Virus record (IMG/VR): IMGVR_UViG_2671180740_000012
Origin: a virus
Taxonomy: Duplodnaviria > Heunggongvirae > Uroviricota > Caudoviricetes
Strand: one strand, 5' to 3'
DNA: 40,166 nt
Shown: piece after piece, positions 21,001-27,000 of the stretch
How positions within the stretch are numbered: position 1 is the stretch's first letter
Layout: every line of letters starts with the position of its first letter
Program-made: the position numbers

Positions 21001-24000
21001 TCTTTACCCCATCCGCGATGAACCATAAGGACGCCATTGACGACGGCGTGCTTTTTCGCATCTTTATCATCAATGTATTTTCTGACTGTGGCACGATTGC
21101 AGTTCAGTATTCTGGCGACTTCTGTCTGATTTCCCCTGGTGCAGATCAGTAATTCAGGTATCGTTTGAATTTTAGCATTCATCAAATGTTCTCCAGTTCG
21201 GTGATTTTTATCCCCACTCTACCGCCAGGCACTTTCACGCCGCGAATTACGCGAATGTCATCGAATTGCTCGTCGTCTTCCGCAAATCCGGCGTAGATAA
21301 GAGAGTCGAGTAAACCTTTCAGGATGTTATCGAGGTCGCGACGGCGGGAATCTGGTGGTTCAGCAATAATTGTGATGCGAAGTCGTGATTTAGTGAAAAT
21401 GTCTAATCTGAGTTGCCGGATGATTTGCTGTACGTCTTTTCGGTATTTCTGGCCTTTATCGCTGATGTAGTACTGGCTTCCCCGTCTTCGCCAGTAGGTA
21501 TTCACCGTCGGCGGCCAGGGAAGCACAAACTCATATTCATTCATGACTTAATTTTCCCCTCCTTCAGCAGTATCGCCTGCGTCCTGATCACGCCTTCCAG
21601 GTGGTAAAGTCTGGCGTCGTTGTTGTCGAGAATGCGAGTACGGCGATCGATTTCATTATGGCAGTCACTACAGGCCCATGCAGCCAACAGGTCATCTGGC
21701 TTCATTCCCGTTCCGCAAATTCCAGCCATTCGGTAATGCGCCAAAACTGTAGTTTCAGGATTGCCATTGCATACGCCATAAATCCGTACCTGGCATTCTC
21801 TGCCACGCGCTTCTTTGCGTAGGTTTGCCATCATCTTATTCCTCGTACATTGAGCTATTCGGAATGACTATTAAATCTTGCACGACGCCTTAGCCAACGG
21901 ACATCCCACAGGTGAGCCGTGTAATTGAAGGTTTTAACGTCAGATTCTTTTGGGATTGGCTTGAGTTTATTTCTGGAACGTTTCGTTGGAAGGTAATTGC
22001 AGTTTTCACAGACTATATCGGTGATGCTTCGTCGCTTTCGTCTCATTCGTACCTCCTGTCGGTAAATCTGACCCCCTGCTCCACAGCCCAGGAAGTTGTG
22101 TACTCAATCAGGCTTGCCATACGCTTCACGCTCATCTGCGCACTGCTTTCGCGGATATTGACGCATTCGCCTTCAAGACCAGGTAAAACATCGGCTTCCT
22201 GTTTTGTCGCCACGGCATGACCGCTGATCAACAAAACTTTCCACTGTTCTGGTTTTAGCCACCTGCCACACCACTGAACCTGTCGGGAGATATCAGCGAC
22301 CATCGCGTGAAATTTTGCATTTTGAGCGAGATTACGCTTGTAATCGGTGATGCGGATCGTAACGGGTTTGTCTTTATCGAGAGTTGTTGCAAGGATTGCG
22401 TTAATGGCGAATTGTTGCTGCTGCTTACTTCGGAGGAAGATAGTCTGGTTCATTATTCCCTCTCACTGGATTTTCCCAACAAAAAAGGAGCCGAAGCTCC
22501 TTTGGTTTCAGAATTCAAATTGTCTTGCCCGCAGGCTTTTCAGCATTGGCATGGCCCTCTGGACAACGGAACTTGACATGTCGAGACGTGTTACCTCCCT
22601 CAGTAGCGCGTCTCTGTTCTTCGTCACCATGTAGATAGTCTCAAACGCAATGTCATACAGCTTGTTCGTGTATGAGGAGTTCAGCTCTTTCATAATGGGG
22701 TACAGGTGTTTGCTGATGCCCTGGGCTTTTTCCATCCAGAGCTGCATGTAGCAAAGGAGGATGATTTCCTCGGCTGTGAATTGTGGCTGAATATGCGACT
22801 GCTGTTCGGTTTGTGTTGTTTTTCCCTGGCTGAAATAGCAGTCTTCCAGTTTTTCGAACACTTCCCATGCCTGATCAGTTTCGAGCATTTTTGCGTGACG
22901 GGCTGCTCCGCGTTCTGTCCAGAGGATGAGGGAGCGAACGTTACGGGCGATTTTCACAGAAGGTCTTAAAGACATGCTGTGCTTAAATTCGCGCAACTCC
23001 TCATTCTCAAGTAAAAAGTAGTGCTTACCGATAACAAATCGTCCAGAATTCCGATTGAAATTTTTTCGGATGTAATCTGGTTCTGTGCCATATAAGCTGG
23101 CAAGAAGCTCTGTAGTCACCACAGGTATATTACTAAATGAAATTATGGAGAGGGACTCCACGGAGATGGTTTTCATGCTTTGTGTCCTACTTGATATTTT
23201 GATTTACCCCTTTTGAGAGGGTGACCGGGCGCTCAAAACCGCAAGTAGTCGGCGGGCATATTCCCATTGCTGGTATTGTATTAGCCGCACGCCCGGTCAT
23301 AAACCAAGAAGACTGGACACAAAAAAAACCGCATGTCTGTCGGGCGCGGTAACCGCTACTTGCTAAGGTGTTTTGAGCACCTGACGCAGAGTATCCGACA
23401 GAATGTGTGGTGTGTCAACATTTCCTTGTGTAGATGTTGACACCCTATTAGGTAAAACATTAACGTTGTTTTAAGTTGTTAATAATCATCAATTTAATAT
23501 TAATGTTTGGAGTATAAAAGCATGAGAAAATCCCCTTTGGCATGGTATACGGATGTTCTTTTTAATAACTACTTCAATTATTCAGGGCGAGCCAGTCGAA
23601 GAGAGTTCTGGTGGTATTATCTGTTTAATTTAATATTCTTGGGAGTTCTTTTTTTTATCGGATATACATTAGATAATACTGGCATTAGTTATGGGTTTTA
23701 TATACCTTGCGTTTACGTATTAGCTACGATTATTCCATCCATTACATTGAAAGTCCGCAGACTCCATGATATTGGGTTAAGTGCCTGGTACTTGTTTATC
23801 TGGTGCATCCCGTATATTGGTGGCTTTATATTGTTCGTTATGTACTGTATCCCGTCAGAAAAAGGGGATAATAAATACGGTGCATATAGTATTTAATCCC
23901 CGCCAGATAGTCGCATCAAAAAGTACTGGTTATCTTATCTATTAGATCAAATGTCTTCTCATCAATGTACCAGTACTTTTTATCATCATTTGGGTATTCA

Positions 24001-27000
24001 ACGAAAACCGTCCATAAAACCTCTTCCTTTTTAATGAAAGATAAAAGAAAAGTCTCTATATCCTTTGAATTGTCTTTGGGAATAACTGTAATAAATGAAG
24101 TCCATTTTTCCAACTTTTTACTTTTTATCTGTTTGGCCTCCTTAGGTAGAAAAATTTTAGCATTTGATTCACGTTCCAGTCGGTCTAATAATTGTTTGGC
24201 ATATATATCAACAGGAACACTTATGTCACTTGCTTTATGACGTAATTCAATAGTTGGTGTATACTCGTTCGAAAAATAGAAAACACCATCACTGGGTGAT
24301 GTTATCAGAGTCTTTTCTAAATATGTGTATTTGTATGTTATTGGATTAAACCAATAACAGTACCATTCTGGCTTTAATTGCCCGCTATAAGATGTGTTAT
24401 TATTGTGAACCTTACACACAGGATAAATGTTTTCTATATCAGTCCACTTACTTTTATCCTCTTTTTTTTGTGTGTCTATGACGTTTGAGGAGTGTTTTTG
24501 GTTGAACACTTGAATATTTAAAAAAACTAAAAGTATGTTTCCGATAATAGATGCAATAAGCATTTTCTTCAGTTTTGAGTTATCCATATGCATCCCCTTC
24601 ATTGTGGACAATTACTCTTTGTCATAATTATAACTAAGTCATTATATTTCGTGTTTATTATGTTATAATGATATTTGAATGTATAATTATACTCCTGCAT
24701 CATTTTACACTCGACAGAATTTAATTTTTTTTGTATTTCTAGGCTCATTAAGTTTTTAATCTCTTCACCATCAAAAAATGGCGACATATCTTCATTAATC
24801 CCATAAATATTATAGTAATGATTAAGTGTATTTCCTTCTACGGTTGCAGCAATCCATGTAGTATAATCATCTACTTTAATAGGGAATTTTTTCTTGGATA
24901 GTTCATTTTTTAAGTATGAGGCAATTTTATCTGCATCTTCTTTGTTTGATAAAATATCATCAATTTTATTATCACCGAACTCAGTTGCAATTATCTTTAC
25001 AAAGATCAGCAGAATAATAAACATTAATGCTGCTCCTGTTTTTTTTATTGCTCCTAATATTTTGTTTCCTGTCATCTTGCAAATCTAACATAAAATTTAA
25101 TGAGTCTTATTAATAAATTTAATTTCTTATGAGTTGTCAACCTTCCATCAAGCAAACCGTGATCTAACAGCATGACTGTCTGCTTGATATGTGTTGTCGT
25201 CAACACAGTACAGTCCTTGAATACATATAACAAATTTGTTATGTTGATACCTATGAACTACACTATCGAATACTACAGTGAAGAGGTCCGGCTGGAAGTC
25301 GATCAGCTTCCATTGAGTATGCGTGTCCGATACAAACATCTCATTGAACGTATGAAGGTATACGGCAGCAATCTCGGAGAACCTCATACCAGCGCCTTTG
25401 GTGATGGGCTTTTCGAACTCAGAATTAAAGGCAACGATGGGATTGCACGTGTTTTTTACTGCACTCTGACAGGGAAACGCATCATTATGCTGCATAGTTT
25501 CATTAAGAAAACGCAGAAAACACCGCCAGCCGAACGCAAAAAAGCTGAAGCCAGAATGAAGGAGGTTAAGCATGACTGGTAAACGCATTACACCTACCAT
25601 GACACACGACGAAATGGCAGCCAAATGGATGGAGGATCCGGCTTTCAAAGCAGAATACGACGCCATCGCCGACGAATTCGCACTACTTGATGAAATGCTG
25701 GCAGCACGAAAAGAAGCAGGCTTAACCCAGGCTGAAGTTGCTGAACGTATGGGAACAAAAGCGACTGCGATCACCAGAATGGAAAGCAATCTTGCATCAG
25801 GTATAAGCGGCCCATCATTTGCCACACTGAAAAAATTCGCCCGTGCTACAGGGAAAAAACTCCAGATCCGCTTCGTTTAACTCTCCACTACCGCGCCGTC
25901 ATTCTGGCGGCGCTTTACCCCAGAGAAATATCAATCACCGGATTGCCACATCCCACTCCGGATCCTGCCATCTCAAATCCGGTGAATCATTTCTCGCCGG
26001 AATAACCATTACGTCCTTTTCCCTCCGCTCCCTTTCTATCGCCATCACAGCCAATGCTGCAACCATGATGTATTTTTGTTCGTCGGTTCCTGTTTCATAA
26101 CGACGCATGAGGGTAAACTCGGGGCGATCAGTAACCTCAATGATTTCGTTAATTTCTTTAATTTCGAGAGGAATATCCATGAGTTTAGTCTCCTTTGACA
26201 TTACATGCCCACACTGTTTAAAAGAGCGAGCTGTTATTGAGGCATTTGCCGAAAAACAAATTGAAAAAACACCTCTTTTTAACGTCGCTTTTGTATGCAG
26301 AAGTTGTCATCGAGGAGGTGTTGCTATTGTTGAAATCCCATCAGACCACTATCACGGCCCCATGGCGGAAAGCCAGAAAAAAGACCTCGATATTCTGATT
26401 TCAGGAAATAGCCAGTACCGTTTCCGCAAGATCTATCCTGCGGTCAAAAAAATTACCGCACCAGAATATACGCCCCCGGTTGCAGACCGTACTTTTGTTG
26501 AGGCAAAAGAGGATTTACAGAGGAGGCGGTACGACACAGTGGTAATTCTTTGTCGCAGAGTCCTCGATATCTCCACGAAAAAACTGCTCGGCGATGAAGC
26601 AGGAAAAGAATCGCTGTCGCAACGTATTCAGATGATTTACAAAAAAGGGCTGATCACTGAACAGATGAAGGAATGGGCTCATATTGTACGAATTGATGCC
26701 AATAAAGCAGTTCATACAGATGAAGTTTTCACACCAATTAAGGCAAGCCAGATCCTGAGTTTTACCGAAATGTTTTTAGTCTACGCCTTCACTCTGCCTG
26801 CAATGGTGGCAGCCAGACGTGAACAAAAAAGATCAGATTCAGCCTCTATATGAATCACTTTTCTGAACACGTAAGCCCCAGTCATTCACGACGGGGAGAA
26901 CATCAATCCCTCTGCACTCCCCCGCCAGAATGCCAGCACACGCTGCATCGTTTCGCTGTTACGGCACTCGCGACAAATTATGTTGTAGCGTCTGTCGTAG

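Follow-up and report, generated by a model that had tools for sequence, protein, structure and literature searches.

Introduction

Membrane-level exclusion of superinfecting phages is known from several systems, among them T4 Imm and Sp, P22 SieA, HK97 gp15, lactococcal Sie2009 and streptococcal Ltp. Such systems often consist of a polytopic membrane protein together with a signal- or lipid-anchored extracytoplasmic protein, and they are carried as dispensable cargo under promoters of their own. Here we describe a three-gene cassette (genes A, B and D) in the IMG/VR virus record IMGVR_UViG_2671180740_000012, a Caudoviricetes sequence of 40,166 nucleotides (the window, by which this whole stretch is meant). 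The cassette lies on an AT-rich island and is very probably a real, conserved set of genes for envelope proteins. Like the systems above, it is predicted to encode small phage proteins of the inner membrane and periplasm, and the action tentatively proposed for it, a block of entry after adsorption, is the same. In contrast, its products have no sequence similarity to the known proteins, and it is made up of three separable genes instead of one or two.

The DUF805 protein encoded by gene D has relatives in YhaH and YhaI of Escherichia coli K-12. In an E. coli mutant resistant to PhiWec188 an in-frame deletion was found in yhaH, and both PhiWec188 and PhiWec190 failed on this mutant (PMC12548472); plasmid-borne yhaH brought back sensitivity to the two phages (PMC12548472; bioRxiv 10.1101/2025.02.05.636633). 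The host yhaH-yhaI-yhaJ genes are induced by the envelope-stress regulator CpxR (PMC2731931) and yhaH is a target of the small RNA (sRNA) SdsR (PMC5137417), which links DUF805 proteins to the state of the envelope. A search for functional work on DUF805 turned up only the YhaH phage-receptor paper and regulon lists.

Results

The cassette lies on a discrete AT-rich island

The island and its three genes are listed below (GC, guanine plus cytosine; aa, amino acids).

23395..25185, no strand: AT-rich accessory island with the three-gene cassette, 1791 bp, 31.6% GC
23522..23896, plus strand: gene D, predicted DUF805 inner-membrane protein of 124 aa, paralogue of host YhaH/YhaI
23916..24587, minus strand: gene B, 223 aa, with an N-terminal lysine-rich stretch and one predicted transmembrane anchor (approximately residues 9-28)
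24599..25075, minus strand: gene A, 158 aa, with a predicted signal anchor or signal peptide (K5, K11 and K12, then hydrophobic residues 13-31)

A first reading of the window, made from the sequence alone (the sequence-only reading), had placed a foreign island of approximately 30% GC in a backbone of approximately 50%. Sliding-window analysis gave 31.6% GC for the island compared to a mean of 49.8% (standard deviation 4.5, minimum 40.5) over 697 windows of equal length elsewhere (z = -4.1). In 300-nt windows the GC content was 27-36% at approximately 23350-25300 compared to 43-52% on the flanks, and the island was the sole stretch below 40% GC in the 40-kb window. The foreign look of the insert was borne out by sharp borders at 23394/23395 and 25185/25186. 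On the left, homology to a prophage of E. coli E2855 (L030) ends at 23394; on the right, homology to prophage L031 picks up again at 25186. Prophage L031 represents an "empty site", in which the P22AR-type antirepressor gene directly adjoins the same Gp49/HTH toxin-antitoxin (TA) pair. These findings show, at the sequence level, that the cassette occupies a prophage accessory ('moron') island, discrete and of atypical composition, with an empty-site relative and with promoter-like signals of presumed activity.

Two short-tailed lambdoid Shigella phages of the Sepvirinae, POCJ13 and 75/02 Stx, both converting to Shiga toxin 1 (Stx1), matched positions 23300-25300 of the window with 100% identity. 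A literature search gave nothing on this part of either phage. In the window the minus strand carries the replication and nin genes, Q and stx1, so early-right transcription proceeds toward lower coordinates.

Gene D encodes a paralogue of host YhaH and YhaI

The start of D was placed at the ATG at 23522, which has a GGAG Shine-Dalgarno sequence ahead of it, and not at the TTG at 23507. With this correction, the earlier identification of a plus-strand DUF805 gene stood: the product matched Pfam PF05656 over profile positions 1-111 of 111 with 106.1 bits (cut-off 25.7) and an E value of 1.7e-30. Hydropathy and charge analysis gave three hydrophobic segments (residues 31-50, 58-77 and 88-111) with a positively charged N-terminus and second loop, and the N-terminus is predicted to be cytoplasmic. 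In BLASTP, D aligned end to end with K-12 YhaH (34% identity, E 3e-22) and YhaI (35% identity, E 1e-24). The motifs GRA-x-R-x-E-x-W and RRLHD were common to the three proteins, and G22, R23, A24, R26, E28, W30 and R79-R80-L81-H82-D83 were invariant in their alignment. On these alignments D is a DUF805 member and a full-length paralogue of YhaH and YhaI, agreeing with them in length, in the three hydrophobic segments and in the signature motifs. D differs from both host copies in being phage-borne, approximately 36% GC and clearly diverged, and the host locus is without the two genes for predicted periplasmic partners that are linked to D. No relation of D to colicin or bacteriocin immunity proteins was seen, since Pfam returned DUF805 alone and NCBIfam nothing relevant.

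The gene is unannotated in the GenBank and RefSeq phage records of POCJ13 and 75/02 Stx, where no feature lies under its tblastn match (KJ603229.1 16325-16696; KF766125.2 16337-16708). RefSeq E. coli genomes do annotate it.

Genes A and B encode predicted periplasmic proteins with single N-terminal anchors

Genes A and B are both on the minus strand and converge on D. They had been taken for overlapping genes of 231 and 158 aa; the convergence and the 158 aa of A were retained, whereas B, whose longest open reading frame (ORF) spans 23916-24611 and gives 231 aa from an upstream TTG, was shortened to 223 aa, which leaves a gap of 11 nt between A and B and no overlap. The ATG at 24587 was taken as the most likely start of B because of a strong AAGGGG Shine-Dalgarno sequence 6 nt upstream, because all B homologues align from this methionine, and because GenBank likewise calls a gene of 672 nt. 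The long start of A is supported by K11 and K12, which are invariant across 12 of 12 family members. In Salmonella the A homologues have a GTG start with GGGAGG ahead of it.

Each of the two proteins has three lysines, a single N-terminal hydrophobic helix behind them, as had been recognized before, and a hydrophilic domain. The proposed Lys/Asn/Tyr-rich composition of these domains was right for Lys and Asn but not for Tyr: the bias is toward Lys, Ile and Asn (K 12-13%; N 9.5% in A), and enrichment in Tyr was seen in the DUF805 protein only, among the three island proteins. In B an invariant cysteine pair (C58 and C77) bounds a hypervariable, indel-rich loop that differs in length and sequence from allele to allele. 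The polar residues S13, N17 and Q26 are invariant in the membrane helix of B, which suggests that this helix makes helix-helix contacts. Protein A has an alpha/beta domain of approximately 125 aa with the motifs FP-x-x-VD-x-x-T and N-x-Y-Y, and its enterobacterial members have a cysteine pair (C123 and C156). The most distant relatives of the A domain are standalone lipoproteins with lipoboxes, from a Desulfatiglandales metagenome-assembled genome (MAG), a Bacteroides MAG and a metagenomic source (P0012), which indicates that the A domain is extracytoplasmic. There are good grounds in the sequences for placing A and B in the periplasm, where their domains are probably disulfide-bonded.

Divergent homologues of all three genes kept the reading frame, with indels in multiples of a codon and conservation over the full length. 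Pairwise dN/dS was 0.07-0.5 over the three genes, being 0.3-0.45 for A, 0.2-0.45 for B and, among Salmonella alleles, 0.07-0.2 for D. By these measures all three are real coding genes under purifying selection, and A and B evolve faster than D (0.26-0.45 versus 0.07-0.2).

The view that A and B belong to no recognized family held up in Pfam, NCBIfam, PADLOC and the sequences of the Protein Data Bank (PDB), none of which gave a family for either protein. Single-sequence and profile searches of PDB sequences gave nothing credible, and Pfam scans of each member of the A and B families gave no recurring family. The PHROG matches of the island proteins were phrog_21161, phrog_19308 and phrog_23115 (function unknown) and phrog_12855 ('membrane protein'); those of A and B have no assigned function and were derived from these very phages. 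By hhalign (probability 0.3%) the two proteins are not paralogous. Several low-scoring matches were rejected as noise, namely Leptospira leucine-rich repeat proteins for B (E 2e-4, a local match driven by composition), sensor-kinase domain 4onx for the B-family profile (E 0.14), and the XAC2610 immunity-related domain (E 0.047), foldase 6vj2 and phospholipase A2 for A. T4_Spackle of Pfam was matched by one of the 12 members of the A family (E 0.037, 15 bits against a cut-off of 27) and was rejected too, and two proteins from the exhaustive search (P0013 and P0014) were discarded as repetitive eukaryote-like or globin proteins. The predicted structure of B had a predicted local distance difference test (pLDDT) score of 49, and its match to an NTF2-like/VirB8-like fold may serve as a lead only. 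VirB8/TraE-type bitopic proteins have no sequence similarity to B, and no type IV secretion genes are nearby.

The cassette is conserved between E. coli and Salmonella prophages

Homologues were sought among 5.8 billion proteins with a word-indexed search and among 1.84 billion representatives with an exhaustive profile search, to which a further profile search was added. The word-indexed search returned E. coli relatives only. The exhaustive and profile searches added homologues of A from Salmonella enterica at approximately 28% identity. In Salmonella lambdoid prophages the genes were found in the same order and orientation, (TA pair) <-> A B -> <- D, with 30%, 32% and 45% identity for A, B and D, respectively. 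The sizes were 149-155 aa for A, 228-244 aa for B and 132-133 aa for the converging DUF805 protein, and Salmonella B was homologous to B of the window over its full length (BLASTP E 8e-19). The Salmonella cassette lies between a DnaC-like replication gene and antirepressor, DUF1367 and Q genes. Cassette genes were 27-37% GC in every locus, and synonymous sites were saturated between E. coli and Salmonella (dS > 1.5).

In E. coli three settings were found. The first is of the POCJ13 type, with the full cassette in 7 of 5426 complete genomes; one further complete genome carries a divergent B allele. In the second, the cassette is near the integrase of a different prophage and has a B allele 52-57% identical (L002, L006-L012). 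In the third (L004), the genes are beside cI and a type II restriction-modification (R-M) system. Conserved synteny with other prophages, whose absence the sequence-only reading had named as part of a refutation, was thus found in three E. coli prophage contexts and, at approximately 30% identity, in several Salmonella lambdoid prophages. No A or B was found on 72,556 plasmids, and IMG/VR held nothing beyond the same E. coli and Salmonella types. Among 185,579 species-representative genomes there were two weak matches to the A domain, both lone lipoproteins. On these searches the cassette is conserved across genera but rare, and in the databases and literature searched it is not described.

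Between the window and L002, dS was 0.013 for D, 0.083 for A and 0.93 for B. The two B genes (23916-24587 of the window and 5606-6334 of L002) were 57% identical in amino acids, with three indels. The high dS of B compared to that of its neighbors indicates that the B allele was exchanged by recombination within a near-identical cassette. Together with the faster evolution of A and B and the hypervariable loop of B, this exchange fits an interaction with changing partners.

The TA partner differed between loci, being Gp49/HTH in the window and L002, RelE/HTH in L013, ParE in L015, PIN/PhdYeFM in L016 and L018, and HigB/HTH in L036; it was absent in L004 and L034. This change of family between loci indicates that the TA pair is a hotspot neighbor and not a fixed component. 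Across phages the cargo slot held TA pairs of five families, the R-M system of L004 and DUF4145 genes.

D and A(-B) have candidate transcription signals of their own

Three candidate signals were found on the island.

23412..23443, plus strand: 10-bp perfect inverted repeat GTGTCAACAT / ATGTTGACAC at the left edge of the island
23918..23981, at the convergent junction and overlapping the 3' end of B: perfect 13-bp inverted repeat with A-run/T-run flanks, AAAAAGTACTGGT ... ACCAGTACTTTTT
25135..25140, minus strand: TTGACA -35-like hexamer within the island, approximately 60 nt upstream of the start codon of A

The right arm of the left-edge repeat holds a TTGACA -35-like hexamer (23437-23442) upstream of D, and the repeat folds at -18.5 kcal/mol (z = -2.9). 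The arrangement TTGAC(A/G), 17 nt and AAACATTAA upstream of D is kept in the E. coli variants and in Salmonella L013 and L015. This element may be a promoter or an operator.

The junction repeat gave folding z scores of -3.9 (plus strand) and -3.0 (minus strand). L002, L004 and Salmonella L013 also have hairpins where the genes converge, that of L013 being a canonical GC stem with T-runs. The repeat is a candidate bidirectional terminator, with a loop of 38 nt that is atypical.

Upstream of A, TTGACA was found at approximately 60-66 nt in 9 of 9 aligned variants. In six Salmonella loci homology starts at this hexamer whatever adjoins it (three TA families, a DnaC-like gene or HigB), and in L004 homology to the window reaches approximately 100 nt upstream of A, to 25173. 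No good -10 sequence was found for this element, a putative promoter of A. A scan for consensus promoters showed no enrichment, with 8 sites compared to 11.1 expected from shuffles, so the promoter-like elements rest on their conservation. The conserved hexamers and the junction hairpins indicate that D and A(-B) are separate converging units, each with candidate signals of its own.

The three genes are linked and separable

Gene presence was scored by tblastn across all fetched loci. The full trio was the commonest state, in 7 of 11 variant types. The two-gene pair and the DUF805 gene had been proposed as one unit; they are indeed linked, but they also separate, since A+D, B+D, A+B and A alone all occur. 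In L004 and L005 (A+D) B alone is missing, approximately 66 bp standing in place of window positions 23902-24597. Locus L029 has B and D and no A. In L034 and L035, A and B are followed by 400 bp at 45% GC without a remnant of D. L036 and L037 have, in a moron cluster behind Q, a lone and C-terminally truncated A that points away from a HigB/HTH pair; in L036 this cluster also holds an Ail/Lom outer-membrane protein, an acetyltransferase and a DUF4145 gene. A lone A-like gene was found in L033.

In two Salmonella genomes (L019 and L020) the same C->A change at position 6508 turned codon 37 of the DUF805 gene from Glu to stop, and A and B were identical to those of the intact L018 copy. Separability and this nonsense mutation argue against an obligate three-part machine. 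The idea of DUF805 as a constant core with optional partners was refuted by L034/L035 (A+B) and by L036/L037 and L033 (A alone). It is unlikely that D is an essential antidote to A or B, given the E37->stop change in L019/L020 with A and B intact.

DUF805 genes in other phages

The interval between repressor and integrase is a classic home of prophage-expressed exclusion genes in phages of Gram-positive bacteria. In two unrelated temperate phages of the Gram-positive type, Lactobacillus phage LBR48 (L038, GU967410.1 5574-9497) and an IMG/VR locus (L054, 2660238488_000004), a DUF805 gene lies between a CI-like repressor gene and the integrase gene, preceded by genes for zinc-ribbon membrane proteins, one of which is bitopic with an extracellular domain. 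In these two cases DUF805 falls in the prophage-expressed part of a temperate phage genome. The likeness to the cassette is that a temperate phage carries a DUF805 membrane protein beside other membrane proteins, including a bitopic one. The differences are that the zinc-ribbon partners have no similarity to A or B, and that these genes are at the repressor-integrase interval whereas the cassette is at the replication-nin interval. A general rule for the neighborhoods of phage DUF805 genes was rejected, as only these two Firmicutes-type cases fit a lysogeny-module pattern.

LBR48 also has an ImmA/IrrE-like protease near the repressor; its 'putative receptor protein' is actually Peptidase_M78/IrrE-like. 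In high-GC IMG/VR contigs (L046-L053) DUF805 is fused to an N-terminal soluble domain of approximately 100 aa beginning 'RGQILTFDAETGGGLISGDDGNRYAF', and in at least one of them the gene is beside genes resembling those of gene transfer agents or tails, unlike the enterobacterial and Firmicutes contexts.

Discussion

A superinfection-exclusion module as a tentative reading

Our leading, though tentative, reading of the cassette is a prophage-expressed envelope module that would exclude superinfecting phages at the periplasm or inner membrane; we hold this to be possible, though short of probable. A mobile moron cassette of lambdoid prophages would put up to three proteins into the cell envelope. 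D, an inner-membrane protein with three transmembrane segments, would have a promoter to itself and be transcribed against the direction of the phage early genes. A and B would be made from the converging two-gene unit, each anchored in the inner membrane by its N-terminal helix and exposing to the periplasm a fast-evolving, probably disulfide-bonded domain. Expression would be from the prophage and probably during early lytic growth too. After adsorption of another phage, the proteins at the interface of periplasm and inner membrane would hinder entry of its genome, together or singly. In such a scheme D could replace, mimic or poison an entry factor of the YhaH type in the inner membrane, and A and B could be variable periplasmic components that contact incoming tail-tip or ejection proteins or a host factor. 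Expression in the lysogen, physical contacts among A, B and D and an exclusion phenotype are what we infer here. A narrower version, in which D is a dominant-negative decoy or plug that mimics an entry factor and hypervariable, disulfide-looped A and B set the specificity, has in our judgment only a slim chance of being right.

The points that fit exclusion are the discrete low-GC insert with an empty-site relative, the recurrence of gene order and orientation in other prophages, the purifying selection on all three genes, the predicted envelope location of the products, the fast evolution of A and B, the swapped B allele, the cysteine-bounded loop and the polar residues in the helix of B, the moron-style promoter-like elements, the neighborhood of defense and addiction cargo, the homology of D to YhaH and the DUF805 genes in lysogeny modules of Firmicutes-type phages. 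Several observations weigh against it. The cassette is rare: it was found in 8 of 5426 complete E. coli genomes and in four of 50,697 deposited phage records, which stand for two distinct phages, POCJ13 and 75/02 Stx. Variants with A+D, B+D, A+B or A alone show that the genes can part, and two Salmonella genomes have a stop codon within D beside intact A and B. A and B are co-oriented with the early-right lytic operon and are possibly mainly lytic-phase genes, so their expression in the lysogen is not a given. The link of YhaH to phage infection comes from one study of two related phages, and an identity of 34% to YhaH would be no proof that D acts on the same phages. DUF805 genes are found in other contexts in high-GC IMG/VR contigs. 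D, B and A gave zero matches to PADLOC-DB v2 at E <= 0.1, none of the three belongs to an exclusion family annotated in PHROGs or Pfam, with T4 Imm/Sp, Sie-type and Cor/Llp-type families among those covered, and the structure models are too poor to inform on any reading.

If exclusion is true, A and B would join the short list of envelope-level exclusion systems as two new protein families and a first function would be given to phage-borne DUF805, tied to YhaH, an inner-membrane phage host factor reported only in 2025. Entry-factor mimicry, if true, would be the first mechanistic role found for the large DUF805 family. The carrier is a Shiga-toxin-converting phage of Shigella and E. coli, and the cassette could affect which phages, including therapeutic ones, infect these hosts. 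If there is no phage phenotype, the cassette would still be a well-delimited AT-rich envelope cargo whose conservation across genera needs explaining.

Other readings of the cassette

Lysogenic-conversion or fitness cargo that protects or adapts the lysogen, as orphan immunity against bacteriocins or contact-dependent effectors or by modulation of envelope stress, is an unlikely alternative. Immunity proteins are typically small periplasmic or lipoprotein-type proteins or inner-membrane proteins with three to four transmembrane segments, which counts for this alternative. In colicin operons the immunity genes of pore-formers converge on their neighbors, and the convergence of D counts for it in the same way. 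It would also draw on the faint match of A to the XAC2610-related immunity domain, which at E 0.047 is far below cut-off, and on the place of A in L036 among virulence-type morons (the Ail/Lom outer-membrane protein and the acetyltransferase). The Cpx induction of yhaH-yhaI-yhaJ (PMC2731931) and the targeting of yhaH by SdsR (PMC5137417) are in keeping with such a role. In contrast, no significant match to an immunity, colicin or effector family was found and no toxin gene is adjacent; moreover, the cassette was found in prophages only and not on plasmids or in chromosomal toxin/immunity islands.

We give little credence to a second alternative, that three unrelated AT-rich morons accumulated in one hotspot without a joint function, some of them perhaps decaying. 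It would account for the natural occurrence of A+D, B+D, A+B and A alone, for the exchange of the B allele independently of its neighbors, for the lack of paralogy between A and B, for the pseudogenized D of L019/L020 and for the relatives of the A domain that are lone lipoproteins in other phyla. Against it, the order, orientation and spacing of the three genes were kept across the E. coli-Salmonella divergence (dS > 1.5), all three share the extreme composition and are under purifying selection, and no other combination of the genes is as frequent as the full trio (7 of 11 variant types).

Abortive infection, in which D would be a membrane-damaging effector and A and/or B its periplasmic sensors or regulators that release it once a phage disturbs the envelope, with death or arrest of the cell in place of a block to entry, appears improbable. 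Small polytopic membrane effectors are common in abortive systems such as RexB, and this format counts for abortive infection here. TA pairs of many families persistently adjoin the cassette, the stop codon in D beside intact A and B is in line with an effector that is costly or toxic, and the logic of sensor and effector would explain fast periplasmic domains beside a conserved membrane core. However, D is a close structural paralogue of two non-toxic housekeeping proteins of the host, variants with A and B without D and with A alone exist, PADLOC gave no match, and the varying TA families look more like a shared insertion hotspot than like functional coupling.

An equally doubtful alternative makes A and B delayed-early helpers of the lytic cycle, acting in the periplasm to block secondary injection by sister phages or to tune lysis timing, with D as an independent moron: the strand of A and B (shared with the replication, nin, Q and stx genes, and so too in every Salmonella locus), the early signal-anchored periplasmic format of T4 Sp, Imm and RI and a sub-threshold match of one distant A homologue to the T4 Spackle Pfam family (E 0.037) speak for it, but the conserved promoter-like element travels with the cassette to unrelated positions (integrase in L002; after Q in L036), nearly all related Stx and lambdoid phages lack the genes, which are hence unneeded for growth, and the Spackle match is not significant and is missing from the PDB profile search.

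Neighboring genes and elements

The island had been placed between the nin region and a TA pair. The TA pair is indeed on the right, but the gene directly to the left is an antirepressor gene (ORF6N/P22_AR_C; 22508-23176, minus strand), with ninB further out. The right neighbors are, in order, the Gp49/HTH TA pair, an ORF of 88 aa and a DUF4145 gene.

A full-length match to sRNA-Xcc1 (Rfam RF02221; 79.6 bits compared to a gathering score of 53, E 5e-14) was found at 23215-23298 on the minus strand. It lies 39 nt upstream of the antirepressor start (23176) and approximately 100 nt beyond the left border of the island, and it may be a leader or a small RNA tied to the antirepressor gene.

The TA pair (25253-25880, plus strand) is divergent from A. 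Its toxin matched the PADLOC model NsnC (3.5e-10), and the antitoxin also matched PADLOC. The DUF4145 protein (26107-26853, plus strand; Pfam E 1.2e-8) matched phrog_1305 ('DNA binding protein') and, weakly, the PADLOC model of a single-gene defense candidate, PD-T7-4 (E 0.0017).

The right border of the island (25147-25207) has two inverted repeats next to each other, ATCAAGCAAACCGTGAT / ATGACTGTCTGCTTGAT and TGTGTTG-tcgt-CAACACA, a short way upstream of the toxin gene. The latter belongs to the TA side, since it is kept in the empty-site prophage L031. Both repeats are possibly antitoxin operators.

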